Source of the DNA: a virus | Taxonomy: Duplodnaviria; Heunggongvirae; Uroviricota; Caudoviricetes | Direction: 5' to 3' (one strand) | IMG/VR virus record: IMGVR_UViG_3300032323_003295 | Span: 28,490-92,489 of that record | DNA: 64,000 nt | Shown: positions 3,957-55,655 of the stretch, one piece after another | How positions within the stretch are numbered: position 1 is the first letter of the stretch | Layout: every line of letters starts with the position of its first letter | Position numbers and translations under genes: made by a program | The notes under the pieces: generated by a model | The model's input: only the letters and a program-made list of their open reading frames with translations | Told to the model about the DNA's origin: nothing | Database searches by the model: none

Positions 3957-4916
3957 ATGATAAAGAAATATTTAGAATTCATTAAAGAAAATAAAGAAGA
4001 CTTCAACTCTATAGGAGAATGGGTAGAATCTTTATATTCAGATGAATATATTAAAAATATAGTTAATAGATTCTTAGGTGAAATAACACCTGATATTAAA
4101 TTATCAAATGCTATTAACCTATTAGATAAAAGAGAACAAGCTGATATAAAGAAACAAATTGAAGATTATCAACAAAATGGTTTACAAGAGCATCCAGAAG
4201 TAAAAGTATCTGCTTCTACAGAAGTTGAAGACCTTTTAGAATCTGAAATCACAATGGCAGGTAAAGGTATATTCAATTCTTTTTTGAAAGCATTAACTGC
4301 TTTAGGACAGAAGAATGGACAACCAACATTAGATAAGTCACCTGATGAGTTTTTGTTGTTCTATCACTATCCAAAATTGATTTCTGATGATGTTAAGATA
4401 GTATTTAGTAGATTCAAATCTTTATCTAAATATGTAGAGATGATTGACTATGCAAAAAATGAAGTTGATTTATACTTTGGTATTAAATGTGATGGTAAGT
4501 TTGAGTATGGTATTTCTTATGAAGAGTCTTTACCTATTGGTCAATTCAAATTATCACAATCTGTTATTAAATGGATTGTTCAATTAGATTTAAAATCTGC
4601 TGCTTCTTTGAAAAAAGAATTAGTTAATTTATCATATCAAGATATTCTTTTATTAGGTAAAATTAAAACTGATATGAAAGATTTTACACCAGGTTATCAC
4701 GAACAAAGGTCAAAACCAACATTAGTTGATAAAGTTTTATCATTTGGTTATTATGGTATTGGTAAATGGGATAATGGTAAATTAGATGAAGGAGAATTAT
4801 TTAATATAAAGGGTAACTTTAGTAACTGGATATTAAGTAAAAAATGGTCTGATAAAGTTTTAATAAGTGTTAAAGCTCAATCATTCTGGTTAAATATACA
4901 TATAAAATTGAAATAA
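3957..4916 (+). CDS. Hypothetical protein with CTS-like N-terminus (MIKKYLEFIKENKEDF)
   Basis: 319-aa ORF. Its N-terminal motif is shared with 29135..29974(-) and others (see findings). Confidence 0.6.
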   Translation: MIKKYLEFIKENKEDFNSIGEWVESLYSDEYIKNIVNRFLGEITPDIKLSNAINLLDKREQADIKKQIEDYQQNGLQEHPEVKVSASTEVEDLLESEITMAGKGIFNSFLKALTALGQKNGQPTLDKSPDEFLLFYHYPKLISDDVKIVFSRFKSLSKYVEMIDYAKNEVDLYFGIKCDGKFEYGISYEESLPIGQFKLSQSVIKWIVQLDLKSAASLKKELVNLSYQDILLLGKIKTDMKDFTPGYHEQRSKPTLVDKVLSFGYYGIGKWDNGKLDEGELFNIKGNFSNWILSKKWSDKVLISVKAQSFWLNIHIKLK

Positions 4917-5389
4917 TGAGAAAGTTTACAGAAAGTTTATCAAATGATATATTTGAAGATGAAGATAAATTAAAGTTTTTATTAACTGAGTTTGGTGATT
5001 ATAATCTTACTTATACAATAAATTATCATTTACAAAGATGTTGGAATTTAGAAGATGAGAGTGGAGATTTATATGCTGTTAGAACATCTGATAAAAGTTT
5101 TGATGATTTATATCAAGAACATGAAGATAGAACTGCAGCAGGTAATATCAAAGATATAAAAGGTTATTATAAAGCTTATATAATAAGATTTAAAGAAACA
5201 TATGCTATATTAACTGCTGACCAACAAAGAACTGGAAGAGCATATGGAATACCTACTTCTAAGACTTATGGGTTTATGGAGGTTGCACAAGATGTTCAAC
5301 ATAAAGTAGAACAATTAGGACACACATTTGCACTTGCTATGAGAGATAGTGAGTTTGATATAATGATATTAGAAGGAAAACATAAATAA
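4916..5389 (+). CDS. Hypothetical protein
   Basis: 157-aa ORF whose start overlaps the upstream stop (ATGA). Confidence 0.5.
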   Translation: MRKFTESLSNDIFEDEDKLKFLLTEFGDYNLTYTINYHLQRCWNLEDESGDLYAVRTSDKSFDDLYQEHEDRTAAGNIKDIKGYYKAYIIRFKETYAILTADQQRTGRAYGIPTSKTYGFMEVAQDVQHKVEQLGHTFALAMRDSEFDIMILEGKHK

Positions 5390-5399
5390 AAATAAAACT

Positions 5400-5786
5400 A
5401 TGAAATACATAAAAACATTTGAAGACATCACTGATGATGAAAACTTTAATCCAGTATTAGGATTTGATGACAAAGATGATACTGAACAAGAAAAATCTAC
5501 ATTTGATTTAGATTTAGCAATCACAAGAGTAAAAGAAGAATTTTCTGATGATGAAGTTGCAACCAGATATGATGATGAGATGATGAACTGGATAGATTCT
5601 GACTGGGAAGAAGATGGTAATTATGATTCTGAATATGATTGGTATATTGACCACAATAATGGAGAAGCACAAGATGTTGTTATTGAAGAAATGATTAAGT
5701 GGTATAAAAGTACTTATGATAAAGATATGAGTGATGATGACTACTCTGATTTATTTGATGAGATAAAGTCAGAATATGGTTTATAA
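5400..5786 (+). CDS. Highly acidic small protein (candidate DNA-mimic / anti-restriction) with MKYIKTFEDI N-terminus
   Basis: 128 aa, very D/E-rich throughout (e.g. DDEMMNWIDSDWEEDGNYDSEYDWYIDHNNGEAQD). A rho-independent terminator follows at 5798-5826. Confidence 0.6.
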   Translation: MKYIKTFEDITDDENFNPVLGFDDKDDTEQEKSTFDLDLAITRVKEEFSDDEVATRYDDEMMNWIDSDWEEDGNYDSEYDWYIDHNNGEAQDVVIEEMIKWYKSTYDKDMSDDDYSDLFDEIKSEYGL

Positions 5787-5828
5787 ACAATTAAAAAGTT
5801 TTCTATATAAATAGAAAACTTTTTTTAT

Positions 5829-6275
5829 ATGAAAAAACCAAACAAAGAAGAAATATTAAATAAATGGGATTCAGTACTTAGTGGTATGGGAATGTCAGAA
5901 GATAAAAAAGAGTGGATGTCACAATATGCTGAACTACATGCCACTAATGAAATAGTTACTGCACCAGATGAGATAATAACTTCACAACCAGATTATGGTA
6001 GTTTACTACCAATTGCAATGAAAATTGCAGCACAAACAATAGCACTTGATTTAGTACCAGTTCAACCAATGAGTAGTAATTCTGTTGATGAAATGAAAAA
6101 AATCAAACAGGAAGTTAAAGCAGAAAATCGTGAAAGAAAAATTGATTCTATTGTTGAAGGTAAAGAGTTCAATGAAATGAAGGTTGAAGAACATCCTGAT
6201 TTTAATGGTGGACCTGTTGGTAAACTATTCTATATGGATATGGTATATGGTTCAACAAATTCAACTATAATATAA
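5829..6275 (+). CDS. Hypothetical protein
   Basis: 148-aa ORF directly after the terminator. Confidence 0.5.
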   Translation: MKKPNKEEILNKWDSVLSGMGMSEDKKEWMSQYAELHATNEIVTAPDEIITSQPDYGSLLPIAMKIAAQTIALDLVPVQPMSSNSVDEMKKIKQEVKAENRERKIDSIVEGKEFNEMKVEEHPDFNGGPVGKLFYMDMVYGSTNSTII

Positions 6276-6427
6276 TGTCAGTTTATAAATCACCTGGTGT
6301 TTATACAACTCATGTTGATAAAACATACATCAAAATACCTAAGAATAATTTACGTAAAATAAAAATAAGAAGAATGTTAGGCTTACCACCTAAGAATGAA
6401 CCTATATTTATTAGTTTCCATATATGA
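6275..6427 (+). CDS. Small ORF (50 aa) with tail-sheath-like N-terminal motif MSVYKSPGVYT
   Basis: TAATG coupling to the upstream gene and ATGA coupling to the downstream gene. YxSPGVY is the conserved N-terminal motif of contractile tail sheath proteins, but this ORF is only 50 aa. Confidence 0.3.
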   Translation: MSVYKSPGVYTTHVDKTYIKIPKNNLRKIKIRRMLGLPPKNEPIFISFHI

Positions 6428-6828: not shown

Positions 6829-6841
6829 TAATATATACCTT

Positions 6842-7174
6842 ATGATAAATATCTATTTAGTATGTGCAGAGATTAATGGTGAGAGATTACATAAGATAGG
6901 ATATACAAAAAGAAGTATAGAAGAAAGAATTAAAGAGTTTAGAACTGGTAATGCATCAGACTTCTACATTATAGATTCTTTTAGGTCAAAATGGGGTACA
7001 AAGATAGAAGCAAGTTTACATAGAGTATTTAAGTCTAAGAAAGTAAGAGGTGAATGGTTTAATTTAACCGATGAAGATTTATTATCATTTCAAGAAAAAT
7101 GTCAAACATTACATGATAATTTTGAACTAATAACAAACAACAATACATACTACTTAGATAAAGGTAGTTTTTAA
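6842..7174 (+). CDS. T5orf172/MUG113-like (GIY-YIG-related) domain protein
   Basis: IYLVCAEINGERLHKIGYTKRSIEERIKEF...GEWF matches the T5orf172 domain pattern (GYT...R...EWF). Confidence 0.5.
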   Translation: MINIYLVCAEINGERLHKIGYTKRSIEERIKEFRTGNASDFYIIDSFRSKWGTKIEASLHRVFKSKKVRGEWFNLTDEDLLSFQEKCQTLHDNFELITNNNTYYLDKGSF

Positions 7175-11583: not shown

Positions 11584-14500
11584 TTATTGTGAATAATCTC
11601 CTGAATAATCTCCTGAATAATCAGGTGGTAATGCAATTGTTGAAAAAGTAAAAAATTGTCCTACTGTTTTTATAACTGGTCCATTAACAATATTACCATT
11701 AACCACTGTAAATGCTTGGGTATCTGCAAATGCCAGAACATAATATGTAGTATTTGGTGTTAATCCTGTTTGATTTGACAACAATACTGGTGGTGTTGTA
11801 GATGATGTAAAAATAGGAGTAATACCTGAGAGATTTGTTAATATATTTGAATCTGAACTCAAATAAAGTCCACTAGAAACATATTGTACATTACCTTGCA
11901 CAGAAACATTACCACTTATAGTTACAGATGATGTTGTTATATTTGTTGGTGGATTAGTTGTTACTACTACTGATGAAGAAGCACTAACTACAACATTAGG
12001 TATACAAATAATAGTATTATCCATTATTGAACTATCAAGACTATCTACACCAATTGTAACATTATCAACAAATATAAAATCAGAGTTTAGATAATCAATA
12101 TTAGGTGCAACACCTTCATAAGGAATTTGTATACCTTTATAAATATTTTCTTCTTCAAAATATTTAAAGAAAGGAATCATATCAGTTTCATATAACTTAA
12201 TATTATCTAATACCAACATAGATTGACTTCCACCCATATTACCATTTCCTTGAATACTCATCATTAAATCAGTCTTATTATAAAAATATTCATATTTCTT
12301 TTTAATAGTATTTGAACCAAATCCAGTATATCTTTCTGCTGATGTTTTTTCAACAGAGTCAAATCTAAATGAATTTTGAACTGATAAGTGATTAATATTT
12401 TGTGTTATTGGTAAATAAGACATTCTTCTATAAACAGGACTAGACTCACCATCTCCAGTAGGTAGTGATCCAATTTCAAAATTAAGATTATTAAAATGTA
12501 AAATTGGTAAGTCAACACTTGGTGTTATTTCAATTCCAACATCTTCTATATATTTCTTATATTTAATAATCAATTCCCATCTATCTAGTATTGGGTAAGT
12601 TGGATTTTCATTTTGAATATAAATAGTCCAATTACCTGATGCATTATTAGTTACTAATTCCTCAATGTTTGTTGAATTAGAAACACCAAATCCTAATGTA
12701 CCTATACCAGTTTGTTTTTCCATAGAGAAAGTTCCAGTATATGGTTGATTACCTGATGAGAGTGGAGTGGTTGATAAAATATCAAATACAGTATTTATTA
12801 ATTGTGTTTCTGTACTTGATAAATTGTCATTTTTCTTTAAACAAATAATTTTATTATCTGGTGATTTCAAATTAATTATAATATTACTTAAATTAGAACC
12901 TTGACAATTTAATGAAATTTTAACAGCAATGCTAATAATGTCTTCTGCTAATAATTCTAGTCCAAAAATACATTCACTTGTTGTTATTGTTTGTGTAACA
13001 ATGTTATTTGGTACTTGTTGATATGATAAGAAGGCTCCACCTACTATTAAATTAGAACCACTTAAAGTCATAGTTCTTACCAAAGAAGTTGATGGGTTAA
13101 GAGTACCATCAGTATAAGTACTTGCTAATGTACCACCATTATTTCTAATTGAAATAACTTTTCCACAAGGGTTATTATTATAACTGGTGAATTCACCACC
13201 TATATATGAGAAACTATAATTAGAACTAAATTCTATATCATATGCAAATGAATTTAGTCCTGTACCAGTATTAAATCCTGTATCAACTGAACCATTAGAA
13301 CTCAACCTTACTATATTTTTACAAGTTCTAAGTGATGAATCTCTATAAGATGTAAAGTTACCAACTACATAAATTCTACTTTGATCATCTACTGCAATTT
13401 TATTAATAAAATTATTTGATGAATTAGGTAGAAATGACTGAAATGTTGGTGTAATAAATCCCTTATTATTAGTTGAAGTAGTATTACTTATAGTAAATGA
13501 AGTATCAACACTAAGTTTATTGGATACTATTTTTAATTTTACTATTCCATTTGTATAATAAATAGCACCACTTGTAATCTTAAATCTGGTTATTTTACCA
13601 CCAACTATAATATTTTCATTATTATCAACTGCTACAGTAGATGGAATATCACTAGTTAACTGAAATGCAAAGTCTGTTGGTGCATCATTATAAATACTTT
13701 TTTCTGAAAAATTACCATTAAAATCAAATAAAATAATTTTGTTTACATATTTTATACCTGTTGTAGAAAAAAACCGAGTAAAATTACCAATTACTACTGA
13801 AAACCACTCTATAGTATTTAAAGTTGATCCAATTTTTCTAAATGCAATATCTGTAATAAATCCATTGAATTGGTATTCTATTGGATCATTATCTGCATCT
13901 TTGTTAAACTTTATTACTCTACCTAATACATTACCTGTACTAGTAGTTACTGGATTAATATAATTTATAATAATAAATATATTATTATCTAATGTAGTAC
14001 CAATGGCAGTTTTTACAACTACTGCTTTGATAAATTCAATATTACTATCAAAAGGTATTGTAGTAGGAAAACCATTATCAAGAGTAAAATTTGTATTTAT
14101 TCTACAAACCATATCTACTGGTAATCCATTATATTCAGTAAAATTACCTGCTACTATAATCTTACCATCTGATTGTCTATCAACAGACCAAACTTCACCA
14201 TTAAATCCATCAAGAAAGTTATTTTCTGGAATCATTGAACTTAGTGAACCAACATCAAATGTAAAGATATTACTTGCAGTAAGTGTACCACTATCAGCTG
14301 AAATATTTGATTGTGTTGCAGGATTTAAAAAAGGACCACTAAGTTCAGTTTCTGAATCATATAACCTTTGATTAGTTTGTGTAAATTTAGAATTGGCAAT
14401 ACTATAAGTAACAACATCAAACTCTACTACACTATATCTTGTTTTTGCTACATTAATTTTATCATTATTTAATATTGCACCTGAGTTGGTTGCAGTTAAA

Positions 14501-16935
14501 TATAATTCATTTCCAGTAACACCTGAATCTATATAATCTTGTATTGTAGTAGAAATAATTGAAGCACTATCTGCTGATATAACTGCCTCAGATCTATTAA
14601 ATGCTAAGTCTGATGACTTTTTAGTTGAAAAAGTCCAACCAGCATTATAAAAATTAGATATATTATCTAGTTTTGGATTAAATGGTTCATTAAAAGCAGA
14701 ACCATCACCAATAAAATCAGTAAATAATTTATATTTAGTTCCTAACTTATATAATCCATAATTTAAGTCAAAAGAATTTCTAAAACGTGATGCACTTGAA
14801 AGTACATCATATGTAGGATAACCATATAAATTATTTCTATTTACAGATTTACCAGTCAGTGGTTCATATGACCTAAAATCTCTACCTAATGTAACTGATC
14901 TTGTAACATCATAATTAGTATCAATCCAAGAATTAAAACTAAATATACTTGATGAAATTGGACTTTCATTAGATTTTAATAATGATCTATTAGTATCATA
15001 AAACTTAAAGTTTTGTATAACACTTGATGCAGCATATCTTGTAACTTTACCAGTTTCTGGAAATAATAATATCTGATTTTGTTTTTTATCAACAACAACA
15101 TTATTTCCATTAACTGCCAAAACTTTTACAATACCATTATATTCTGGATTATATAATATAGGAACTGGTGGTGCTCCATTAATTGACACTGCATTTGTAT
15201 CTTTATCAATTATTATATAATCACCAGGAAGTAAATTGTGTCCAGAAGTTCTTGGTGGTGTTGCAGTACCAAATACTAAAGTAATATTACTAATTTGACA
15301 ATTTTCAGTAGCTTGTATATTAGTAAAATAATAATCAGGATAAGTAGAATTAAAATGTCCTCCATTAAAAAATCCATCAATCCAATGAGTATCAAACATT
15401 TCTGTAATTTTAGGATAACCTTTAAATAAACCATTATTCCAAACTCCTGAGAAATAACCATTAAAGAATGCTCCTGATAACCAAACATTTCTAGTTATCT
15501 TAATTTTGTGATTAGATGAATCTTTTTCAATTCTTCTGTATGGAAATGTAGTATTTAAACTAACTTCAATCCAAGTTTTATTTATGTCTATATCACTTAT
15601 AGTGTAATAATCTCTTAATAATTTTCTATTTTCATTTATATCAATTGCTACAATATTACCAATTGATACTTTATCACCAACCTTGAATAAGCCACAAGAA
15701 TGTGTTGAACCACTAATTTTTATTCTCCAAGATACATCATAAGAATAAAGAACTGCAGAGTAAACATCATCAAAATCTCCTACTACAGTGTCATCTCTCC
15801 AACCATTATTCCAAACTCCATTTTCCCAAATACCTGCTTTAAAATAACCATTTCCTATTTTTGACGCCAAACTAAATGTTACACCATTTGAAACAGATTG
15901 AAAATTATATACAGAATCTAATATATCAACATCAATATTGGTAGGTGTAGAAGATGCAGCAGGTAATACTTGTAGATTGTTTAATGGATTATATCCACCA
16001 ACTAAACTTACAATTGATATACTTGCAACATATGTTGTAGTTCTTGGTAAAGATGACATACTTGGTCTAAAAACCAAATATCTTTTAGTTCCATTAATAT
16101 TTGTAGCTGCCAAATTTATTTGACTAAAAGTAGCAATTGTATTAATTGAACTAGTTAAACCAGATAAACCACTTACTTCAAAATTAATTGGATTACCCCA
16201 AGAGGCTCTACCCAATTTTAAGTCATTTTTATTTACTAAAAATGCTTCAATTATATCATTTGAATTACCACCAGTAAAATTAAAAGTAAAATCTAAATTG
16301 AAATAATCATAATCAATTAAAGTTGCTATATAGTTATTGTTAAGTGAAACTTCTTCTAATCCTGATCCAAAAGTTGAATAAAGTGGACCTATGACACTTG
16401 ATGTTGATGAAAAATACCAGTTATAAGAACCATTGTTAGAAATAGAGTTAACTTCATAACACCATCCATTTGGTTGACTTTCATCATTTACTGGAACATT
16501 TAAGTATCTAAACTCTCTATATCCATTTATTAAAAAGTCTATCTCTCTAATTGATGATGCCTTTATATAACTTGATGTAAATGCATCTAATGCACCATAT
16601 CTAATAATATTAACAGAACTTTCAGATGAAAGTGTATTTGCATAAGTATAAAATTGTACTTCACTATTTTCCAAAATTGATAATACTTTTACAGAACCTG
16701 CATTAAAAGGATTACTTAATTGTATATCTACTATAGATGCTGATCCACCTTTAATAGTAGTTAAAAATTGATAATTCTTCTTTTGATTATATAAACTAGG
16801 ATTTGTAAATTCACTATTTATATAGAATAGAGTATCACCTAGATTAAGTTGTTTTCTAGTTATACCATTATTTAATATATATTCCCAACTTTGTTGTGAG
16901 TTTCTATCATAAAATGTTGATGGTGAGTTTTGCAT
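11584..16935 (-). CDS. Giant multidomain fibre/adhesin protein (1,783 aa): delta-60-type beta-propeller repeats, P-domain-like module, NGxF repeats, C-terminal (SGDY)n
   Basis: Repeats GKIIVAGNFTEYNGLPVDMVCRINTNFTLDNGF, YVVGNFTSY...IVRLSSNGSVDTGF and YIGGEFTSYNNNPCGKVISIRNNGG fit the delta-60 / DUF5122 pattern GxFTxYNG...RLNxDGSxDxxF. LSNIIINLKSPDNKIICL is proprotein-convertase P-domain-like. WENGVWNNGWRDD and FFNGYFSGVWNNGLFKG are paralogous to repeats in 19056..24338. The C-terminus is DYSGDYSGDYSQ, encoded by a 12-nt tandem repeat at 11592-11627. Confidence 0.8.
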   Translation of the reverse strand: MQNSPSTFYDRNSQQSWEYILNNGITRKQLNLGDTLFYINSEFTNPSLYNQKKNYQFLTTIKGGSASIVDIQLSNPFNAGSVKVLSILENSEVQFYTYANTLSSESSVNIIRYGALDAFTSSYIKASSIREIDFLINGYREFRYLNVPVNDESQPNGWCYEVNSISNNGSYNWYFSSTSSVIGPLYSTFGSGLEEVSLNNNYIATLIDYDYFNLDFTFNFTGGNSNDIIEAFLVNKNDLKLGRASWGNPINFEVSGLSGLTSSINTIATFSQINLAATNINGTKRYLVFRPSMSSLPRTTTYVASISIVSLVGGYNPLNNLQVLPAASSTPTNIDVDILDSVYNFQSVSNGVTFSLASKIGNGYFKAGIWENGVWNNGWRDDTVVGDFDDVYSAVLYSYDVSWRIKISGSTHSCGLFKVGDKVSIGNIVAIDINENRKLLRDYYTISDIDINKTWIEVSLNTTFPYRRIEKDSSNHKIKITRNVWLSGAFFNGYFSGVWNNGLFKGYPKITEMFDTHWIDGFFNGGHFNSTYPDYYFTNIQATENCQISNITLVFGTATPPRTSGHNLLPGDYIIIDKDTNAVSINGAPPVPILYNPEYNGIVKVLAVNGNNVVVDKKQNQILLFPETGKVTRYAASSVIQNFKFYDTNRSLLKSNESPISSSIFSFNSWIDTNYDVTRSVTLGRDFRSYEPLTGKSVNRNNLYGYPTYDVLSSASRFRNSFDLNYGLYKLGTKYKLFTDFIGDGSAFNEPFNPKLDNISNFYNAGWTFSTKKSSDLAFNRSEAVISADSASIISTTIQDYIDSGVTGNELYLTATNSGAILNNDKINVAKTRYSVVEFDVVTYSIANSKFTQTNQRLYDSETELSGPFLNPATQSNISADSGTLTASNIFTFDVGSLSSMIPENNFLDGFNGEVWSVDRQSDGKIIVAGNFTEYNGLPVDMVCRINTNFTLDNGFPTTIPFDSNIEFIKAVVVKTAIGTTLDNNIFIIINYINPVTTSTGNVLGRVIKFNKDADNDPIEYQFNGFITDIAFRKIGSTLNTIEWFSVVIGNFTRFFSTTGIKYVNKIILFDFNGNFSEKSIYNDAPTDFAFQLTSDIPSTVAVDNNENIIVGGKITRFKITSGAIYYTNGIVKLKIVSNKLSVDTSFTISNTTSTNNKGFITPTFQSFLPNSSNNFINKIAVDDQSRIYVVGNFTSYRDSSLRTCKNIVRLSSNGSVDTGFNTGTGLNSFAYDIEFSSNYSFSYIGGEFTSYNNNPCGKVISIRNNGGTLASTYTDGTLNPSTSLVRTMTLSGSNLIVGGAFLSYQQVPNNIVTQTITTSECIFGLELLAEDIISIAVKISLNCQGSNLSNIIINLKSPDNKIICLKKNDNLSSTETQLINTVFDILSTTPLSSGNQPYTGTFSMEKQTGIGTLGFGVSNSTNIEELVTNNASGNWTIYIQNENPTYPILDRWELIIKYKKYIEDVGIEITPSVDLPILHFNNLNFEIGSLPTGDGESSPVYRRMSYLPITQNINHLSVQNSFRFDSVEKTSAERYTGFGSNTIKKKYEYFYNKTDLMMSIQGNGNMGGSQSMLVLDNIKLYETDMIPFFKYFEEENIYKGIQIPYEGVAPNIDYLNSDFIFVDNVTIGVDSLDSSIMDNTIICIPNVVVSASSSVVVTTNPPTNITTSSVTISGNVSVQGNVQYVSSGLYLSSDSNILTNLSGITPIFTSSTTPPVLLSNQTGLTPNTTYYVLAFADTQAFTVVNGNIVNGPVIKTVGQFFTFSTIALPPDYSGDYSGDYSQ

Positions 16936-17017
16936 AAACTATATATTAATTTAAGTTTATCACTTTGATTATTTTTTATACTTCAAAAACAAAATAATTA
17001 CCAATTATCCATTAATT

Positions 17018-24338: not shown

Positions 24339-24417
24339 TTAACTATTATTAACTTTTTAGTATATATAAAAAAATTAATAGTCTAAACTATTTTTAATTA
24401 TCTTTATACAATATAAT

Positions 24418-25390: not shown

Positions 25391-25522
25391 ATGAAGGTAG
25401 ATTTTGATTTTGTAATTAAGAATTTTAATAAACATCTTAATATTGCAGCAAAGGCAAATAAAAGAAAAACTAAAATTATAAAGTTACTATCTAGTATAGA
25501 TATTAAACAATCTGTATCTTAA
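25391..25522 (+). CDS. Small ORF (43 aa), below the ORF-track threshold
   Basis: TAATATG overlap with the upstream stop. Open frame MKVDFDFVIKNFNKHLNIAAKANKRKTKIIKLLSSIDIKQSVS. Fills an otherwise 160-nt gap. Confidence 0.25.
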   Translation: MKVDFDFVIKNFNKHLNIAAKANKRKTKIIKLLSSIDIKQSVS

Positions 25523-25551
25523 TATATACTTTTATAAAAATAATAAATATT

Positions 25552-26152: not shown

Positions 26153-26947
26153 TTAAAATCTATTAAACTTTGTAATGACACTTTCTACAACTGCAGGTTC
26201 TTGTGTTGCTTCTTCTGGTTTTGCAACACCTGAATGATGTTTAGAAATAATATCTACAATATCTTTTCTTTTGTTACATTCATCAATAAATGTTTTATAA
26301 GTAGTAACTAACTCTTGATTCCAAATAATACCTGATAAAGAATCAGCTAGTGCTTTTTCAGTTTCTGGGTTTACTTCACCATCAAGTACTTCAACACTAT
26401 CCATTGATATATCATTATTTTTAACCCAAGATCCTTTTTCTATATCAAAAAGTAATGCATTTGAAAATTTTAAAGTTGGATTTTCAGCTGCTAAATCAAA
26501 TTTATAATCAAATTTAATTACTGCACTTGACCAAATACGACCATGTTCCCCCAATTCTGTTTTTCCTTCAGCCGCAATTTCTTTGTCCAACATTGGAATT
26601 ATATTCACAACTTTTTTATCATTAAATGTTTCATCAGTTAGTAATAATTTACCACCTTCAACTTTTAATTTTCCTTCATTTGGTTTATAATTTACCAAAT
26701 ATGAAATTGGATGACTTTTTGCTTCATCAGTAAGATCACTTCCACCCATAAATCTGAATGTATAAGCAAATCCTTGCTCAGCAATATTTTGTTTTTTTAA
26801 CATTTCTCCAATAAGTTTACCCTTATCAGATTTACCTTTAACAGCAGCTTCTAATCTATCTAAGAAACTCTCATTGAATTTTTTAATGTATCTCATTACA
26901 AATAATAATTTTCTTTTATATATTAAAAATAAAAACTTATTTTTCAA
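26153..26947 (-). CDS. Hypothetical protein; probable true start at Met17 (nt 26899) giving N-terminus MRYIKKFNESF (CTS-like)
   Basis: 264-aa ORF. The internal Met17 N-terminus matches the MKYIK-F-ES family motif. Confidence 0.55.
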   Translation of the reverse strand: MKNKFLFLIYKRKLLFVMRYIKKFNESFLDRLEAAVKGKSDKGKLIGEMLKKQNIAEQGFAYTFRFMGGSDLTDEAKSHPISYLVNYKPNEGKLKVEGGKLLLTDETFNDKKVVNIIPMLDKEIAAEGKTELGEHGRIWSSAVIKFDYKFDLAAENPTLKFSNALLFDIEKGSWVKNNDISMDSVEVLDGEVNPETEKALADSLSGIIWNQELVTTYKTFIDECNKRKDIVDIISKHHSGVAKPEEATQEPAVVESVITKFNRF

Positions 26948-29134: not shown

Positions 29135-29974
29135 TTAACTAGCATTCAAAAAGTATTCTTTATCAGATTCACAATGAATAAGAAATTCATTATCAGTTAT
29201 GTCATACTCAATAAAAGGATATATTTTCAAAAATTGAATTAATTTTTTATTAACATCTTCAATGGTATGTGGATAATCTAAATAATCTGCTAATTTTTTA
29301 GTAAATATAACTATTCTATCTTCTTCTATAATAACAAAATCTTCCATCTTACAACTGAAAAAATCATGCCAATTATTAATTAGTTCTATACAAAATCCTT
29401 TACTTGCATACTCTTCAAATTCTTTTTGAGTTATACCTAATTGCTCCATCATAAGTTGACCATATTTAGTTTTATGATAACCATATGAGTATCTAATAAT
29501 TGCTTCTTCTGGATAATCTTCAATACCACTCCATCCTGGACCACCTAATAGAACTTTTTTATAATCTAATCCTAATCTCTTAACAGTAAAATATAAATAT
29601 GTATCAATATCACCATTTATTTCTTCAAGTGAACTTTGATGAAGTTCAACAAATATATCTTTATCATCTGAGTCTTTTGCCCATTTACCTACAATTTTAT
29701 CAGCTTCTTTTGAGAATATTTCTTTTATTACATCAAATGTAAATCCTTTAGCATCCATTTCTTTTTGATGTTCTTTATAGTCTTCTTCTGGATCTTGGTT
29801 TTCTCTCTTACATAATGTTGAAAAATTAGGGCCACTACCAAGAACATCAAAAATTGCTTCTTTCCAATCATCTCTCAGTTGTGTAATTTCATCTCTTGTA
29901 TAAGATTTTTTAGCTGATTGGTCAAAATAATCTTCTATACTCTCATTTACAAATTGTCTATATCTTTTTATCAT
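29135..29974 (-). CDS. Hypothetical protein with CTS-like N-terminus (MIKRYRQFVNESIEDYF)
   Basis: 279-aa ORF. Its first 16 residues closely match those of 3957..4916. Confidence 0.6.
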   Translation of the reverse strand: MIKRYRQFVNESIEDYFDQSAKKSYTRDEITQLRDDWKEAIFDVLGSGPNFSTLCKRENQDPEEDYKEHQKEMDAKGFTFDVIKEIFSKEADKIVGKWAKDSDDKDIFVELHQSSLEEINGDIDTYLYFTVKRLGLDYKKVLLGGPGWSGIEDYPEEAIIRYSYGYHKTKYGQLMMEQLGITQKEFEEYASKGFCIELINNWHDFFSCKMEDFVIIEEDRIVIFTKKLADYLDYPHTIEDVNKKLIQFLKIYPFIEYDITDNEFLIHCESDKEYFLNAS

Positions 29975-29989
29975 AACATATATATTAAT

Positions 29990-35265: not shown

Positions 35266-35299
35266 TTTTTTTATGTCTAATATTTTTATATATAGTTTT

Positions 35300-35719
35300 A
35301 TGATAATTAAAAAATTTGAAAATTTTAGACCTATTGGTTTGAGAAATGGTAAAACTGAATTAGGTAATCTACAAAAAGAAGTTGAAATTAGAATTGATCT
35401 TGAAAAAATAAGACATGCATCAATTCAACAATATAGACATGGTTTTAATAGACTAAGTGGTAAAATTGAAGACTATGAGATTATAGATTTAGTTGAGAGA
35501 GCAATTGAAGAAATAACAATTGCACTAATGCAGGATAGATATGATATTAAAGATGAAAATGGTAAACCAAATAGATTCATCATCAGAGATAAAGAAACAA
35601 AATTAAATGTAGTTTGTGAACTAAGACCTGGTGAAAATGAGTTTACATTAACAGTTATAACAGTAATGAGAGTAGAACATTTCAGAACTGCAATAGGACA
35701 ATGGGTAGTAGAAGTATAA
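35300..35719 (+). CDS. Hypothetical protein with CTS-like N-terminus (MIIKKFENF); ORF 35273 trimmed to Met10
   Basis: The first ATG of the listed ORF lies inside the terminator T-run. Met10 gives MIIKKFENFRPIG, which matches the shared N-terminal family. A bidirectional terminator follows. Confidence 0.5.
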   Translation: MIIKKFENFRPIGLRNGKTELGNLQKEVEIRIDLEKIRHASIQQYRHGFNRLSGKIEDYEIIDLVERAIEEITIALMQDRYDIKDENGKPNRFIIRDKETKLNVVCELRPGENEFTLTVITVMRVEHFRTAIGQWVVEV

Positions 35720-42284: not shown

Positions 42285-45200
42285 TTATTTTTTACTTGTT
42301 GTTGAGAAGTCATCAATGTAAGCAGGTCCACCACCTATATTATTGAACTTTCTAACTGCAACTTTATTTCTGTTTAAATTAAATTTAAGAGTAAATGTGA
42401 ATGGTCTATTTTCAGATTCATTCTCTACAAAAAACTTTAATTTCTTAACATGTTTAACTGTCTGAGTTGAATTATTCAAATCAATATATTGATAGTTTAA
42501 TCCATTTTGACTACTATCTAATGAGTTCATTTTAAAATAAATATTCAATGGAACTATTATAGAATTTCTGTCACCTGCAGCAACTGTACGAATCTTGTCA
42601 CTATTTACTTCTTGAATACTTTCAAGGTCTTTAACAACTGGATGAATTGTAGTCAAGAATTTAGTTGTTGATGCAACTGATACTGTAGTATCATTCCACT
42701 TTGTAGGATCTAATAATGATTTATTATTACCAATAAATGCCAATATTGTTGATTCATTATAACCAAGATTATATTCATTAGATGAAAGTACATTAGTTAC
42801 TGAGTTTGAATTATCTGTATTAAATGCATTACCAACATTTTCAGATAGTTTAGAAACTGTTGTTTGTGTAATAGAATCATAGTTAACCATCCAAATAAAT
42901 TGATTATCAAGTTGTGTTCTTGTTTGACCACTTACATCAACTGTTTTTAATTCATCTTGATTATTTACCCAGAAAGTTTGAGGTGCAGTTGAATTATAAA
43001 CATTACCTGTACCATCAATATAATTTCTATTTGATAATAAACCTAATACTGATTCAGTTGCTTTATTTCTAAACTTAACAACAAAGTCCTTAATTATATA
43101 AATATTATTTTGGTAAACTCTACCTGTAGGAGCACCTGTTGCAGTATATGAATCTAAGTAATCTTCACACTCAACATTGAATGTTGTTTCTGATCCATTT
43201 GATACAACAAACTCTTGGTTATTTCTAAGAATAATAATTTCAAGTTCACCTTTAGCTCTTTTGATTTTTTCTTCTAATGCAGTAATTCTATCTGTTAACT
43301 TTTGAATATAAGTATATAAATCTAATGAAACACCATTTTCATCTTGAAAACCAGAAAGAACTTTTTTAGCTTCATGATGATAAGTAACATTATTAACTGT
43401 TACTGTATCTGATAAGTGTTCATCTAAACCTTTAGCAGATAACTCAGCATTCATACTTATTTTTAAATCTTCCTTAGTAGCTTCTCTTAATATAAATTCA
43501 TTTTCATTAAGAACTGTATTTAAGTCATCTGGAAAGTCCACTGTCACTATATCAGACCAATCTGATTCTACTGCAGCTTCTGGCCAACCTACCTCTGAAA
43601 TTGATTTAATTCTAAACTCAATTCTTTCATTTGGTAAAATAGGTAAGTCAAATTGATTTATATTAGGAGTATCTGCAGATGTAACATCTTCAATTTGCCA
43701 AGTATATTCACCAGTTGTACTATTATAAACTCTTTTTCTTGCATCTGTTTTATATTCAGACCAGTTAGAAAAAGCTGCCTTACTCTGAGAATCTGTTATT
43801 GAATAAGTCTCAACTGGAGATTCTTTACCATCTTTACTTACTTTTCTGTATTGAACTCTAAATTGTACAATTTCTTGTGGTCTAGTTCCAGTTGTAATAA
43901 CTGCTTGAGGAATATTCCAGAAACCTCTTACATTAAATTGAGGATCAACTTTAGTTTTAGGATCTTTTGAAAGGTCAATAATCTCTTGAGTTACTGATGC
44001 AAGTAATTTACTTTTACTGTCTTTTTTAGATATTAATCCTTCAATCTCTAAATCTGCTTGTTTCTTTGCAGAGTCTGATTTATACTTAGTAAATTTTGAA
44101 GTTTTATTTCTTGATAAAATTGCTTCTTGTACTTGTTGTATCTCTGATTTTAAAGATAACTGATAATTATGTTTTTGTTTAACTAAATTAGAATCTGGTG
44201 AATCAGTAAGGTGTTTATTAATTTGAACAACCTTGAAGTTATCAACACTCAAAGTTGGCGCAACAGGAGTACCACCTAATGCATTAGGAGTTTTCTTAGC
44301 AACTAAATCTTGTAAAACAACACCATAATCATAAACATAATCAATATAGAATTGTTCCATTGACAAACCATTTGCAGTAGATGTAGAATCTAATCTTAAA
44401 TCATTTGTATAATAACCAGTACCTAAACTCCATTTCTTGGCAACTAAGTGATTATCAGTATTAATTGGTTTAATGAAAAGAACATTTCTCTCATTGTAAC
44501 CAATACTTACTCTACATCTTTTAGCATAAATAACATCAGAATAAACTTTTAATGTTCCAACACCAACTGGGATTGGCTCAATTCCTTCTAATCTTTCAAC
44601 TCTAACTCTTGGATTACTCTCAACCGTAGAAACTTCAATTATTCTATATTTAGTGGATGATTGAGCAGTATTTATAATTAACTCATCTCCAACTGCCAAT
44701 TGTCTAGTCTGTCCTGCATCAACTACTAAATACTCAAGAGTATCTAATACATACCAAAGTTTTTTATTTAATCTATCTTCTTGTATTCTCAATACACTAA
44801 ATTGACCATCATATAATAAATTATTTGGTTCTAAATCAAAAATCTGTTCATCAAATTTAGGATTAGTAGCATTTAAAACACCTGTAGTAGTTTTATGCCA
44901 ATTTTCAAATTCTGAAATGATGATATTTGCATTTCCTCTAAATAATTGATTATATGAATTTAATGCTGATTGACCATTAGTAGTTAATGAACCATCTGCA
45001 TTTTTCTCAAAATCAACAATATATCTTCTAACTAAACATTTTCTTACATTATCTTCAATTTTGTTAGATAGGTCTAACTCTACTGAAATCATTGGATCCA
45101 TTAATGAATCAAAGAACCAGTTTGGACTTGATTTAAAAGTTGATATAAAACCAATACTACTAATAGGTGTAGGGTCTCTATTCAAATCTACAGTAACTAA

Positions 45201-45485
45201 CTTCTTATACTTATTTTGTGTAGTTGTTTGTATTAAAGAACCAGCACCATCAATACCATACAATGAATTTATATTATTATTCAATCTATCAATCTCACCT
45301 TTTAAAGATGTAAAAGATGGCATTGTGAAGTTTCTTAATACTCCATTTGCATCAAATATTTGAAGATTTACTGATGACTCAGTTGTTGTTGTTAATGAAC
45401 TAATTTTAGATAGTATTTCAACAATATTTTTATTATAAGATATTATTTGGTCTGCTACCTTTGGAAATGAACTTTGAATTGCCAT
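42285..45485 (-). CDS. Large virion structural protein (1,066 aa)
   Basis: Long ORF that is first in this minus-strand structural block. Internal coiled-coil segment around aa 700-760. No enzymatic motifs. Confidence 0.7.
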   Translation of the reverse strand: MAIQSSFPKVADQIISYNKNIVEILSKISSLTTTTESSVNLQIFDANGVLRNFTMPSFTSLKGEIDRLNNNINSLYGIDGAGSLIQTTTQNKYKKLVTVDLNRDPTPISSIGFISTFKSSPNWFFDSLMDPMISVELDLSNKIEDNVRKCLVRRYIVDFEKNADGSLTTNGQSALNSYNQLFRGNANIIISEFENWHKTTTGVLNATNPKFDEQIFDLEPNNLLYDGQFSVLRIQEDRLNKKLWYVLDTLEYLVVDAGQTRQLAVGDELIINTAQSSTKYRIIEVSTVESNPRVRVERLEGIEPIPVGVGTLKVYSDVIYAKRCRVSIGYNERNVLFIKPINTDNHLVAKKWSLGTGYYTNDLRLDSTSTANGLSMEQFYIDYVYDYGVVLQDLVAKKTPNALGGTPVAPTLSVDNFKVVQINKHLTDSPDSNLVKQKHNYQLSLKSEIQQVQEAILSRNKTSKFTKYKSDSAKKQADLEIEGLISKKDSKSKLLASVTQEIIDLSKDPKTKVDPQFNVRGFWNIPQAVITTGTRPQEIVQFRVQYRKVSKDGKESPVETYSITDSQSKAAFSNWSEYKTDARKRVYNSTTGEYTWQIEDVTSADTPNINQFDLPILPNERIEFRIKSISEVGWPEAAVESDWSDIVTVDFPDDLNTVLNENEFILREATKEDLKISMNAELSAKGLDEHLSDTVTVNNVTYHHEAKKVLSGFQDENGVSLDLYTYIQKLTDRITALEEKIKRAKGELEIIILRNNQEFVVSNGSETTFNVECEDYLDSYTATGAPTGRVYQNNIYIIKDFVVKFRNKATESVLGLLSNRNYIDGTGNVYNSTAPQTFWVNNQDELKTVDVSGQTRTQLDNQFIWMVNYDSITQTTVSKLSENVGNAFNTDNSNSVTNVLSSNEYNLGYNESTILAFIGNNKSLLDPTKWNDTTVSVASTTKFLTTIHPVVKDLESIQEVNSDKIRTVAAGDRNSIIVPLNIYFKMNSLDSSQNGLNYQYIDLNNSTQTVKHVKKLKFFVENESENRPFTFTLKFNLNRNKVAVRKFNNIGGGPAYIDDFSTTSKK

Positions 45486-45519
45486 TATTCTAAAATGATT
45501 TTTTAGTATATATTAAATT

Positions 45520-45795
45520 TTGTTTATTTCTTTAAGTTTTATTTTGTATATTTGTGTCATGAAAATATATAATGTAACATTTAATGATGGTGGTTGGCAT
45601 AGTGGTCCACTACCAAGTTTTCAGATAGTGGCTGAAAACAAACAAGAAGCAATTGAAAAAGTTTTAGAGAAAAATCCACGTTATAAAACTGGATGGGATA
45701 AATGGGCAAGTGAATTCAAAATAGAAGGATATGTCATAGAAGTCTATGATGAAAAAACATATAATAGAAATAAAAATTTGGATAAATTGGTTTAA
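45520..45795 (+). CDS. Hypothetical small protein (the start may be Met14 at 45559)
   Basis: 91-aa ORF. The hydrophobic first 13 residues overlap a promoter-like AT-rich region. Confidence 0.4.
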   Translation: MFISLSFILYICVMKIYNVTFNDGGWHSGPLPSFQIVAENKQEAIEKVLEKNPRYKTGWDKWASEFKIEGYVIEVYDEKTYNRNKNLDKLV

Positions 45796-45824
45796 TACCT
45801 TATCTTTGTAAAAAAATATAATAT

Positions 45825-49335: not shown

Positions 49336-49486
49336 AAAGTATAAAAAAACATAGAGAACTAATCAAACTTTATATATACTTTGTAATATAATTTGTTACA
49401 ATATAAAGCAATTAAAAACAATCAAAAACAATCAAAAACAATCAAAAGCAATTGACAGCAAGTCAACAAAAAATCAAAAGCAATCT

Positions 49487-52649: not shown

Positions 52650-52679
52650 TTTTATATATAGTAAAAATTAATATGTAAT

Positions 52680-53552
52680 ATGACACCATCTAAAATAAAA
52701 TTGATTGATTATTTGAAATCAAATTATAATAAAAAATCTAAAGATGAAATAATTAAAGATACAAATCTTTCTTGGAACTATATACAAAAAATTGCTTGTT
52801 TAAATAAAATCAAAAAAGGTTCTAATGAATCAAAAAACAACTCAAAGTATTCAAAAATAATTGATTACAATGATAATATAACTTGTTATTGGATAGGTTT
52901 TATACTTGCAGATGGTCATATATACAAAGAATCCAACATTCAGATAAACTTATCAATAAAAGATAAAGAATATATTTTAAAAATTGAAGAACATATAGGA
53001 AAAGTATGTAAATATGAGTATAAAGATGATATAAGACTTGTAATATCAGATAGAAAAAGTGTGAGTAAATTATCTAATGACTTTAATTGGTTGTCTAATA
53101 AAACCAAGAATCCAGTAAAAATACCTGATAACATAACCAATGACCAACTATTTAGCATGATGATTGGATTTATAGATGGTGATGGATGTATAAATAAAAA
53201 GGGTTTGTTATATCTTAAATGTGATTCTTCATGGGGATATTTTTTAGAAGAAGTATATTATATACTAACATCATCAAAAAAGAATTTTTATATATCACCT
53301 GATGGATGCTCAAATATATGTATAACTAAAAATAAAGAAGTACTTAAAATCAAGAATAGAGCATTGTCTCTAAATTTACCTATAATGAATAGAAAATGGG
53401 ATAGAGTAGTTGATAGAACATTAAAATGTGATAAATATAACATTATACAAAATCTACTTATTGAGGGACATGATATTAAAAAGATAAAAGAAAATACTGG
53501 GTTTAGTCAGTCACTTATTTATAAAGTTAAAAAAGATTTAAAATGGAAGTAG
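52680..53552 (+). CDS. LAGLIDADG-family homing endonuclease (two-motif monomeric type)
   Basis: Two LAGLIDADG motifs: WIGFILADGHIYKE and MIGFIDGDGCINKKG. 290 aa, free-standing between smpB and the next gene. Confidence 0.75.
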   Translation: MTPSKIKLIDYLKSNYNKKSKDEIIKDTNLSWNYIQKIACLNKIKKGSNESKNNSKYSKIIDYNDNITCYWIGFILADGHIYKESNIQINLSIKDKEYILKIEEHIGKVCKYEYKDDIRLVISDRKSVSKLSNDFNWLSNKTKNPVKIPDNITNDQLFSMMIGFIDGDGCINKKGLLYLKCDSSWGYFLEEVYYILTSSKKNFYISPDGCSNICITKNKEVLKIKNRALSLNLPIMNRKWDRVVDRTLKCDKYNIIQNLLIEGHDIKKIKENTGFSQSLIYKVKKDLKWK

Positions 53553-53696
53553 AGTTAAAAACAAAATCATTAAATGAAATATTAAATAAATGTAATTCAT
53601 TAGGGTGGGATATTAAAAAGACAAAATTAGTAAGTAAAATTTTTGAAGATTTATCTGAACCTGATAGTTATTATGTAAAATTATATTTGAAAAATA

Positions 53697-54047
53697 ATGA
53701 AAAATAACATAGAAGACTTCTTTGAAAAACTCCATAGTTCAGGTAGTGAGGAAGAAGTAATAAAAAACTTAAAAAGGATTATCAAAGGTTTCAATGTATC
53801 TACATACAAAGAAAGACTTATGAGTAATCCTTATTTTAGTTTATTGATAAATGAAATCAAAGGTGATATTTTATTTGAGATTGGTTTAATTAAAGATAAT
53901 ATAGAATTAGAAATAAGAGGTATAGATGATGCTTTAGGTAAACCAATTAGTGTTAGTGACTTTAATAGATTAAAAGATTTGAAAAGAGAATGTATGGGTT
54001 TACTTTATGAAATAAATGATCGAATCAATGATTTGATTTTACTTTAA
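53697..54047 (+). CDS. Hypothetical protein (N-terminus MKNNIEDFFEKL)
   Basis: 116-aa ORF. Its N-terminus weakly resembles the shared family motif. Confidence 0.45.
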   Translation: MKNNIEDFFEKLHSSGSEEEVIKNLKRIIKGFNVSTYKERLMSNPYFSLLINEIKGDILFEIGLIKDNIELEIRGIDDALGKPISVSDFNRLKDLKRECMGLLYEINDRINDLILL

Positions 54048-55655
54048 TAAACTATTAACAAACTTCTCAATTATATTTAGTTTTATCATTGATTCCTCAA
54101 ATTCATCATCAGCACCATCACAATATGAAACATATCTAGACATATTACTACTACTTGAATCAAATGAATTTATAACATCATTATATGGTGTTGCTAATTT
54201 ATTTCTACGATCTGATATGAAATCTTGTATAACACTTAACTTATATTTAACCATTATTATATCATGTATATTCTCAATATCAACAGACTCAATATAGTTA
54301 TTTATTTTCTCACCTAAATTTAACAATCTTTTTATTATAGTAATAAGATTTTCATCATTTGATTTTAGAATAACATCTAAGTTATTTCTGTAAATATTAC
54401 TATAACTTGTAGTATTTCCTCTACTATTTTTAAATACACTTAAAACATTACTGAAATAATACTCTTTATCATCTTCATTTACTAAATTATATAATTGATT
54501 AATAAGATTATTCAATGAACTCATATTATTATCTAAATAAAGATTAAATATAACAAACTTATTACACATTATATTATTAACAAATTTATTCAATTTAGAA
54601 AAGTCTTCTGTATCTTTATGTAATCCATACTTAGCAACTAATTTAGTAGTATAATTATTAATATTTATTTGCTTTATATCATAATCAGACATAAGAGCAG
54701 TAGCACCTTGTCTAGCACTAGTTCTATCTCTTCTTATAGTATTTATATTTGGAATTGAAAGTAGTTTATCCATATAGACAATAATAGCAAAGTCTGCTTT
54801 TTCTATAGCAGTTTCAATTATACCTTGATTATCTAATGTCCAATCCATAATATTACCTCTACTATCTAATGGTTTATTAAAATCTGCTAAATTGGCTTTA
54901 TGTTTAGGTTTATCAATTTTAATTTCTTGTCTTAATTGTCTATTATTTTTAGTATAAAGATGTAATCTAAAATGATCACCATCTGTATGAATAATACCAT
55001 TATTTTCATCATCACGTCCTAATCTCCAAGTATATTGATAATTTTGTGCAAAATCTGGTCTATCTCCATAAACAGATGTTCCATCTGATTTATAATCATT
55101 ATAAACATAAATTGCATTAGAATTATAAGTATCAATAAATACTTTACCAATTACTACTCTATTTGAATCACTATTATCACCAAGTACAACTAAGACATCA
55201 TCACCTGTTTTTAAACTTTTATAATCTAATACTGATGATAATTTACCTTTATTTATTCCTAAACTATTTTTAATATAATAAAATTGATCCTGATTAAAAT
55301 TTTTATTTTTATAAGAATAATCATTTTCTATCTTAACATATGGTGTAGTTAAATTACCTGTACAAGTTTTACCCAAAAATCCTTGTTCTACAGAGAACCA
55401 ATATTTTATACAATAAATATCCCAGTTATTATTAACTGGTTCATTATTCTTAACTTTAATTGCTTTTGATGTTCTAAGATATTCTAAATCATCTTCTTTT
55501 ATTCTTGAGATAGGAATATTATATATACCCATTAATCTTTTAATATCATCAGAGAAAGATGTAGCACTTTTTTGCCCTATTTTCTTAGTTAAGAATTTAA
55601 GTGTATTAGTAATCACTTGTGATTCAAAGGCTTCATATAATTTAATGTATTTCAT
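54039..55655 (-). CDS. Hypothetical protein with CTS-like N-terminus (MKYIKLYEAFES)
   Basis: 538-aa ORF with a family-type N-terminus. Convergent with the gene at 53697. Confidence 0.6.
   Translation of the reverse strand: MKYIKLYEAFESQVITNTLKFLTKKIGQKSATSFSDDIKRLMGIYNIPISRIKEDDLEYLRTSKAIKVKNNEPVNNNWDIYCIKYWFSVEQGFLGKTCTGNLTTPYVKIENDYSYKNKNFNQDQFYYIKNSLGINKGKLSSVLDYKSLKTGDDVLVVLGDNSDSNRVVIGKVFIDTYNSNAIYVYNDYKSDGTSVYGDRPDFAQNYQYTWRLGRDDENNGIIHTDGDHFRLHLYTKNNRQLRQEIKIDKPKHKANLADFNKPLDSRGNIMDWTLDNQGIIETAIEKADFAIIVYMDKLLSIPNINTIRRDRTSARQGATALMSDYDIKQININNYTTKLVAKYGLHKDTEDFSKLNKFVNNIMCNKFVIFNLYLDNNMSSLNNLINQLYNLVNEDDKEYYFSNVLSVFKNSRGNTTSYSNIYRNNLDVILKSNDENLITIIKRLLNLGEKINNYIESVDIENIHDIIMVKYKLSVIQDFISDRRNKLATPYNDVINSFDSSSSNMSRYVSYCDGADDEFEESMIKLNIIEKFVNSLLK

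Follow-up and report, generated by a model that had tools for sequence, protein, structure and literature searches.

A common N-terminal tag on unrelated, probably late proteins of a megaphage and its resemblance to the capsid targeting sequence of phage T4

This study concerns a short peptide tag at the extreme N-terminus of otherwise unrelated proteins encoded on a 64-kb stretch of tailed-phage DNA (hereafter the window; IMG/VR record IMGVR_UViG_3300032323_003295, positions 28,490 to 92,489). Six genes of the window carry the tag, and in related phages it heads 12-15% of all open reading frames (ORFs). It is established by the analyses given below that a protein-level N-terminal tag is common to more than 100 unrelated, probably late proteins. 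The best-supported reading, to which we assign a probability of about 0.55, is that the tag is the megaphage counterpart to phage T4's capsid targeting sequence, because it resembles that sequence, ends in the context cut by proteases of the T4 gp21 type, occurs in a clade with both a candidate protease of this type and a capsid gene, and shares a promoter motif with head and tail genes.

Among the phages in GenBank the only DNA relatives of the window (G+C content 24-32%) were LR745206.1 (635 kb) and LR756502.1 (642 kb), both uncultured, and the window is syntenic gene by gene with positions 290-336 kb of LR745206.1. A tblastn search of the GenBank phages with the tagged protein encoded at position 3957 of the window returned only these two uncultured huge phages and no cultured relative. 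The window probably derives from a T4-related megaphage of the Mahaphage/Lak kind with a Bacteroidota host. In a published comparison the Lak megaphage sits in a T4-like jumbo group using S77 prohead proteases.

Membership of the tagged set was determined with a profile hidden Markov model (HMM) trained on another genome in order to avoid circularity. LR745206.1 was fetched whole, 892 ORFs were called, and the model was built from the first 18 residues of the 114 ORFs fitting two loose patterns, with no window sequence used. It was applied to the 63 genes of the window, to its 520 ATG-started ORFs of at least 25 amino acids (aa) in six frames, and to 206 N-terminal-like controls starting at internal Met residues. 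Ranks 1-6, both among the 63 genes and among the 520 ORFs, were taken by the following six ORFs with 11.3-20.3 bits, and these were separated by a clear gap from the next-best ORF (6.9 bits) and the best internal-Met control (6.3 bits). The tagged genes, with tag positions in nucleotides (nt), are:

3957..4916, plus strand: 319 aa; tag MIKKYLEFIKE (nt 3957-3989); 15.3 bits
5400..5786, plus strand: 128 aa, very acidic; tag MKYIKTFE (nt 5400-5423); 18.2 bits
26153..26896, minus strand, ATG at 26896: 247 aa; tag MRYIKKFNE (nt 26870-26896), then Ser; 18.1 bits
29135..29974, minus strand: 279 aa, acidic; tag MIKRYRQFVNE (nt 29942-29974), then Ser; 11.3 bits
35300..35719, plus strand, ATG at 35300: 139 aa; short tag MIIKKFE (nt 35300-35320), then Asn; 12.9 bits
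54039..55655, minus strand: 538 aa; tag MKYIKLYEAFE (nt 55623-55655), then Ser; 20.3 bits

A sequence-only reading of the window had listed these six ORFs and, more weakly, a seventh; all seven exist with the N-terminal peptides that it described. The six main members stand as the top six of the 520 ORFs, and the seventh (53697..54047, plus strand, MKNNIEDFFEK) was rejected at 2.6 bits; its orthologue in LR745206.1 (333403-333774) starts MSIKEEFNFLFEK and is untagged. Also left out was the ORF at 4916-5389 (plus strand) between two tagged genes, whose MRKFTESL looks like a truncated tag and scored only 3.5 bits; it has no homologue in LR745206.1. The tags occupy residues 1 to 7-12 of their proteins, and outside them no significant mutual similarity was found among the six window proteins, in agreement with the earlier claim that they are unrelated. 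Pfam and PHROG scans of the seven candidate proteins matched no family.

The tag is an amphipathic stretch of 7-12 residues with the core [IL]-K-x-[YF]-x-x-[FY]-x(0-2)-E, and it occurs in two flavours, M-K-[YH]-[LI]-K-x-[FY]-x-E and M-x(0-2)-[IL]-K-[KR]-[YF]-x-x-F-[IVL]-x-E. An HMM of flavour B only aligned poorly and was not used. In the whole related genome LR745206.1, 135 of the 892 ORF N-termini scored at least 10 bits, as compared to 5 of 2877 internal-Met 22-mers, and the motif is thus enriched about 90-fold over these controls. A simple regular expression matched 82/892 N-termini, 23/3439 internal Met sites and 34/9026 other ATG sites of the same genome. The tagged genes are scattered along the entire genome of LR745206.1, and 7 of the 59 ORFs of a random 50-kb piece of LR756502.1 were tagged. 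After removal of their first 20 residues the 135 tagged proteins of LR745206.1 fell into 128 BLASTP clusters, 121 of them singletons.

Synonymous codon use within the tag matches that of the genome as a whole (for Lys, AAA makes up 72% in the tag vs 74% genome-wide, and Leu is encoded by five codons), and the constraint therefore acts on the protein. Substitutions at variable positions of the tag stay within a residue class (F/Y, L/I, K/R): Phe or Tyr occupies position 7 in 82 of 90 cases, Leu, Ile or Val is found at position 4, and Lys or Arg at position 5. A Sec, lipoprotein or double-glycine leader, which would have a hydrophobic core of at least 7 residues or a Gly-Gly processing site, was rejected by inspection, as the tag lacks Gly-Gly and its hydrophobic residues alternate with charged ones. 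Genuine signal peptides of the Bacteroidota type in these genomes differ from the tag (e.g., MKKTSILLFLLITAFVYSQ at 6424). No report of such a tag was found in the searchable literature.

Two of the window genes belong to families in which conservation of the tag could be followed, and there the tag is more strongly selected than the protein behind it. The gene at 3957 is a core gene of the clade, and in its family (at least 120 homologues, among the matches listed) IK[KR]Y[LI][ED]FI[KS]E is nearly invariant and is directly followed by a linker of 2-6 residues that is hypervariable in sequence and length, and then by the conserved body. In the window protein a putative cut after Glu11 would precede the variable linker NKED, and the conserved body starts from FNSIGEW. 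On contigs whose 3957 homologue is just 40-44% identical the tag of that homologue is retained, and 2-5 ORFs in every 20 kb are tagged. One homologue has the other flavour (MKYLKLYENF), so that either flavour can stand in for the other. Among 24 homologues of the 54039 protein (25-60% identity) conservation is highest in residues 1-12, which rank first of 527 twelve-residue segments (0.87 vs 0.47 for the rest). The predicted local distance difference test score (pLDDT) of the AlphaFold (AF2) models is below 50 for residues 1-14 of the 3957 protein and residues 1-8 of the 54039 protein, so that the tag is left unpacked in both, and the models are otherwise confident; a Foldseek search of PDB with the 54039 protein gave no match.

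The 5400 protein has an isoelectric point (pI) of 4.05 and consists of 34% Asp and Glu, and the orthologue in LR745206.1 (291084-291374), at an identity of only 33%, retains the tag as MKYLRKYNES. The sequence-only reading had singled out this protein as highly acidic and comparable to the T4 internal protein IpI; its acidity is confirmed and the comparison stays an analogy. No homologue in LR745206.1 was found for the 26153..26896 protein, nor for the 29135..29974 protein (pI 4.69). The syntenic slot of the latter is occupied in LR745206.1 by an unrelated gene (311927-312400) with a weaker tag (MIYLRLFES, 8.4 bits). A slot holding unrelated tagged genes in the window and in its relative resembles the polymorphic internal-protein locus of the T-even phages.

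For the comparison with T4 the whole genome was assembled from its record, in which IpII and IpIII start with MKTYQEFIAE and IpI with MKTFKEF (given as MKTFKEFTSTTTPVSTITE), and 271 N-terminal 14-mers were scored with the megaphage tag HMM. Anchoring of the HMM at model position 1 was dropped, since the T4 leaders align from position 3, and the first 14 residues were used instead. IpI, IpIII and IpII ranked 2, 5 and 6 of the 271 N-termini; the chance of three given T4 proteins all being in the top six is about 6e-6. Among the first 104 T4 ORFs these three proteins ranked 1-3. According to reviews, the T4 sequence of about 10 residues takes internal proteins, as well as foreign ones to which it is fused, into the scaffolding core, and gp21 removes it; a 2023 review of T4 still calls its mechanism mysterious.

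Rank 1 of the 271 was taken by T4 gp61.1, a hypothetical protein of 54 residues encoded beside the primase gene (AF158101; 18966-19130 of the fetched piece, minus strand), which starts with MKTFKEFIKE. By this N-terminus gp61.1 is a possible, so far unrecognised carrier of that sequence.

A hydrophobic-x-Glu context, mostly ending at residues 8-12, was present in 120 of the 135 tags of LR745206.1 (89%), and the residue following it was Ser in 40, Asn in 14, Glu in 13, Ala in 11 and Gly in 7 cases. Among the 670 untagged N-termini 217 (32%) have such a context, with no preferred position or next residue. The cut sites of T4 proteins, located in the record by means of propeptide lengths from a review (gp21 9, gp24 10 and gp23 65 residues), are FLTE|A for gp23, LLRE|S for gp24, LLIE|T for gp21 and FIAE|A for both IpII and IpIII, and according to the literature all gp21-family proteases cut after Glu. 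At the level of sequence the tags thus end in the hydrophobic-x-Glu context of gp21-family sites, a check that the sequence-only reading had proposed together with a search for the protease.

The portal, terminase, sheath, tube and major capsid genes of LR745206.1 are T4-type, and directly upstream of its capsid gene of the Gp23 family (Pfam match 1.8e-26) lies the candidate for the prohead protease:

LR745206.1, 198546-200669: candidate S77 protease, 707 residues

This protein aligned to T4 gp21 by BLASTP (E=2e-4) through NRNxRxY, GExxHP and VSSR, and GExxHP and VSSR are the motifs in which the catalytic His and Ser of gp21 presumably lie. The precomputed label PF03420 is borne by many homologues of the candidate, and its N-terminus, MKPVLIIE|N, resembles the self-cleavage site of T4 gp21, MNEPQLLIE|T. 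Both the protease and a sigma-like protein described below were detected by means of position, pairwise BLASTP and precomputed Pfam labels only; phmmer searches of LR745206.1 with T4 gp21, gp22, gp67, gp68 and gp55 gave no match, nor did a phmmer search of PDB with the candidate protease. The proposed search for a prohead protease has thus yielded a gp21-type candidate in the clade.

A further gene bears on the capsid and is the last one in the cluster headed by 3957:

5829..6275, plus strand: 148 aa, untagged, conserved in LR745206.1

Its product aligned by BLASTP to the N-terminal 118 aa of LR745206.1's gp23-type major capsid protein (E=1e-17) and to residues 1-63 of T4 gp23 (E=4e-4), and by these alignments it is a small paralogue of the propeptide and N-arm of the major capsid protein. 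It may act as a decoy, take part in assembly or provide a second route into the prohead. The cluster that starts with a tagged core gene and ends in this paralogue adds a point of genomic context for capsid targeting.

The tagged genes are further connected by a promoter-like motif. The 10-mer TTWATATATA occurs 18 times in the window as compared to 5.5 expected copies, a number reached in none of 100 shuffled sequences, and nearly all copies lie directly upstream of a correctly oriented ORF. The copies that precede tagged genes are:

3943..3952, plus strand: TTAATATATA, 4 nt before the ATG of 3957
26917..26926, minus strand: TTAATATATA, 20 nt before the ATG at 26896
29979..29988, minus strand: TTAATATATA, 4 nt before the ATG at 29974
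35285..35294, plus strand: TTTATATATA, 5 nt before the ATG at 35300
55660..55669, minus strand: TTAATATATA, 4 nt before the ATG at 55655

Further TT[AT]ATATATA sites are:

534-543, 25519-25528, 49369-49378, 52651-52660, 57308-57317, 58106-58115 and 59148-59157, plus strand
16940-16949, 24361-24370, 45507-45516 and 56771-56780, minus strand

All six tagged genes of the window either have the motif directly upstream or, in the case of 5400, which has no promoter of its own, lie inside the cluster headed by the motif-bearing gene 3957; the motif also precedes the tail-fibre gene and the genes for proteins of 1783, 1760 and 1066 aa. Its spacing to the ATG is bimodal (4-5 nt or approximately 18-27 nt), and the shorter spacing implies leaderless or near-leaderless mRNAs. 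In four of the six tagged genes the motif at 4-5 nt upstream fixes the start codon. The start at ATG 26896 is supported because the motif lies downstream of the TTG at 26947, and the start at 35300 (Met10) because the motif lies inside the longer ORF from 35273. Both internal Met starts proposed by the sequence-only reading are hereby strengthened, with the correction that Met 26896 is residue 18, and not 17, of the TTG-started ORF.

In LR745206.1 the shorter form T[AT]ATATATA was found within 40 nt upstream of 64 of the 135 tagged genes vs 82 of the 670 untagged genes (odds ratio 6.5, p=1.6e-18), and the same motif or a one-base variant lies upstream of the genes for the major capsid protein, protease, portal, terminase, sheath and a gp15-like protein. 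T[AT]ATATATA is probably a late promoter akin to TATAAATA of T4, and from its distribution the tagged genes may be co-expressed with the head genes. As with the T4 late promoter, which is read by the gp55 sigma factor, it would be a single AT-rich element of the -10 type before head, tail and tagged genes; it differs from it in wording and in often lying 4-5 nt from the ATG, and both its timing and its reading factor are predictions. The tag itself is real, as the sequence-only reading had it, and what that reading missed was the scale (more than 100 proteins per genome) and the link to this promoter.

A protein of 121 aa in LR745206.1 (189151-189516), far shorter than gp55, aligned to residues 9-119 of T4 gp55 by BLASTP (E=2e-4) and is a candidate for the factor that reads T[AT]ATATATA. 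A different box, TAnnTTTG, of the Bacteroidota -7 type, was present in the window at ~45535-45560 and 45800-45822 (upstream of ORF 45559 and the ligase gene 45825) and upstream of 31066 and 56186; the genes are non-structural, and there is no Shine-Dalgarno sequence. In LR745206.1 this host-type box precedes 2 of the 135 tagged vs 76 of the 670 untagged genes. Its form suggests a second class of promoters read by the host RNA polymerase and a Bacteroidota host.

If the tag is a capsid targeting sequence, it would dock the newly made protein onto the scaffolding core during prohead assembly, a prohead protease of the gp21 type (S77) would then cut after the Glu of the tag, and the trimmed protein would stay in the head with the DNA and enter the host at infection. 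Docking, cleavage, packaging and ejection of the tagged proteins are all predictions from the genomes. Several observations weigh against such a function. The T4 internal proteins score just 6.5-9.6 bits with the megaphage HMM, so that significance attaches to their rank alone, and gp61.1 and MobB reach similar scores; the resemblance to T4 claimed earlier therefore holds by rank and is low in bit score. A tag on 12-15% of ORFs appears to far exceed the documented use of such sequences, T4 having few such proteins. The tagged set has enzymes of cytoplasmic type (a CCA-adding enzyme, NUDIX hydrolases, a methyltransferase and a Toprim protein), and the average tagged protein is more acidic than the average untagged one, in contrast to the T4 internal proteins, which according to a review are lysine-rich and contact DNA. 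The Peptidase_S77 Pfam match of the candidate protease is weak (E=0.003) and below the curated cut-off, and both the head module and the protease were identified in the relative LR745206.1, outside the window.

These points give some room to a rival in which the tag is likewise a protein-level address, for a destination other than the capsid, e.g., a chaperone, a protease adaptor or degron, the tail or baseplate, or an intracellular assembly made by the phage, with the likeness to T4 arising from convergence of short amphipathic helices. The N-terminal recognition motifs of ClpX are also Met-basic-hydrophobic in form. Enrichment, selection at the protein level and unrelated carriers would fit any common binding partner, the T4 bit scores are modest, and 135 tagged among 892 proteins, together with enzymes of cytoplasmic type, would be unusual for capsid cargo. 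We nevertheless regard another destination as less likely, since it leaves unexplained that the profile picks out three T4 internal proteins, that hydrophobic-x-Glu followed by a small residue is positioned as in gp21 sites, that the linker after the Glu is hypervariable in the 3957 family, that the tagged genes are apparently co-regulated with head genes, and that a paralogue of the capsid propeptide is encoded nearby. An address in the protein is not needed if the first 25-35 nt are instead part of the late promoter or a translation element for leaderless mRNAs lacking a Shine-Dalgarno sequence, the peptide being a by-product of codons made of A and U only. Such a signal would account for the lower G+C content of codons 2-12 in tagged genes (19% vs 26% in untagged genes), for the motif lying 4-5 nt from the ATG in 36 of the 135 tagged genes, and for leading tag residues (Lys, Tyr, Leu/Ile, Phe) that can be encoded with A and U alone. 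It is largely refuted by codon use, synonymous sites being as free in the tag as elsewhere in the genome. Position 7, moreover, hardly ever takes Leu, Ile or Val, although these are also one base change away, the conserved Glu, Ser, His and Arg require G or C, about three quarters of the tagged genes (e.g., 5400 inside its cluster) have no abutting promoter, and 24 untagged genes have the leaderless arrangement and no such peptide; a nucleotide-level signal is accordingly very improbable. Lowest in our estimate stand a chance resemblance in a genome of 27% G+C, in which Lys, Tyr, Ile, Phe and Asn abound throughout, and a family of paralogues with a common N-terminal domain. Chance is opposed by the enrichment over controls of the same composition and by the clean score gap in the window, and paralogy by the 128 clusters, the mutually unrelated window proteins and the lack of similarity past the first ~20 residues. 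A nucleotide-level signal, paralogy and chance can thus all be regarded as excluded or very nearly excluded.

With capsid targeting as the preferred reading, the likeness to T4 covers several features. In both systems an N-terminal peptide of about 10 residues heads otherwise unrelated, fast-evolving proteins, non-homologous tagged genes can fill the same genomic slot, and the head genes are of the gp20, gp23 and gp17 type with an S77 protease. IpI, IpII and IpIII share with the tag the core K-x-[YF]-x-[EQ]-F-[IV]-x-E, and IpI (MKTFKEF...ITE), IpII and IpIII also share its hydrophobic-x-Glu end, a gp21 cleavage context. Unlike T4 with its handful of such proteins, six are encoded in 64 kb here and about 135 in the 635-kb relative, and the flavour that dominates here is MK[YH][LI]Kx[FY], which is not the T4 wording. 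The megaphage cargo is acidic on average, unlike the lysine-rich internal proteins of T4, and includes a highly conserved core protein (3957) beside variable ones. The T4 sequence has been shown to package foreign proteins, whereas the megaphage tag is known from sequence alone.

The phiKZ-like giant phages (phiKZ, 201phi2-1, SPN3US) offer another parallel, with approximately 50 different head proteins trimmed after Glu by a protease of the gp21 family. The SPN3US paralogues gp53 and gp54 have an identical N-terminus of 15 residues, likened by the authors of that work to T4 targeting sequences. The propeptides of the head and ejection proteins of these phages differ from the megaphage tag in being mostly 80-160 or more residues long, in being common only within families of paralogues and in their cleavage site A/S/G-x-E, whereas the tag has 7-12 residues and is common to more than 100 unrelated proteins.

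Most tagged proteins match nothing. The minority with recognisable domains in LR745206.1 comprises two NUDIX hydrolases, a NIF-type phosphatase, a CCA-adding enzyme, an NFACT-R protein, an M15 peptidase, a methyltransferase, a small Toprim protein, a MazE-like protein and a fusion protein in which a 2H phosphoesterase (weak Acb1 match) is joined to a DEDD exonuclease. The wider proposal that phages of this clade load more than 100 different, mostly uncharacterised proteins (10-15% of their genes) into the capsid by means of a T4-type tag is tentative, and we rate it a little short of even. The fusion of the 2H phosphodiesterase with an exonuclease, the NUDIX hydrolases and the very acidic proteins would be putative anti-defence cargo.

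Most genes of huge phages lack an assigned function, and these phages are uncultured. If the tag marks capsid cargo, the proteins that a megaphage carries into its host could be listed from sequence, the arsenal borne by the virion would be far bigger than in any studied phage, and the virion would deliver with its DNA a ready-made proteome that can be read from the genomes of uncultured phages. More than 100 natural variants would then be at hand for deducing the requirements of the T4 targeting sequence, and a packaging handle for engineering phages of Bacteroidota would be possible. Whatever its destination, a protein-sorting tag on approximately one in eight ORFs of a viral genome is a notable feature of organisation.

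Other products recognised in the window were tail-fibre, tailspike and gp10-like baseplate proteins, an SbcC-like ATPase, an NAD-dependent ligase and a primase-like protein. Four very large proteins either belong to no known family or match only a family of unknown function:

42285-45485, 37986-42278, 19056-24338 and 11584-16935, minus strand: very large proteins of 1066-1783 aa

These are probably components of the baseplate or tail. The 1066-aa protein (phrog_29329) is the product of the most conserved gene of the window, with 73% amino acid identity to LR745206.1, and its gene lies in the sole stretch that is detectable at the DNA level.

The window has 11 tRNA genes in an array at 57508-59588 (Lys-TTT twice, Trp-CCA twice, Phe-GAA twice, Ser-TGA twice, His, Leu-CAG and Arg-ACG), which is split by an ORF of 801 nt (58136-58936) and has late-type promoter motifs at 57308, 58106 and 59148. 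The ORF at 52680-53552 (plus strand, 290 aa) has no counterpart at the syntenic position of LR745206.1, and its counterpart on a near-identical contig has a faint precomputed match to LAGLIDADG_3; it may be an inserted homing endonuclease.

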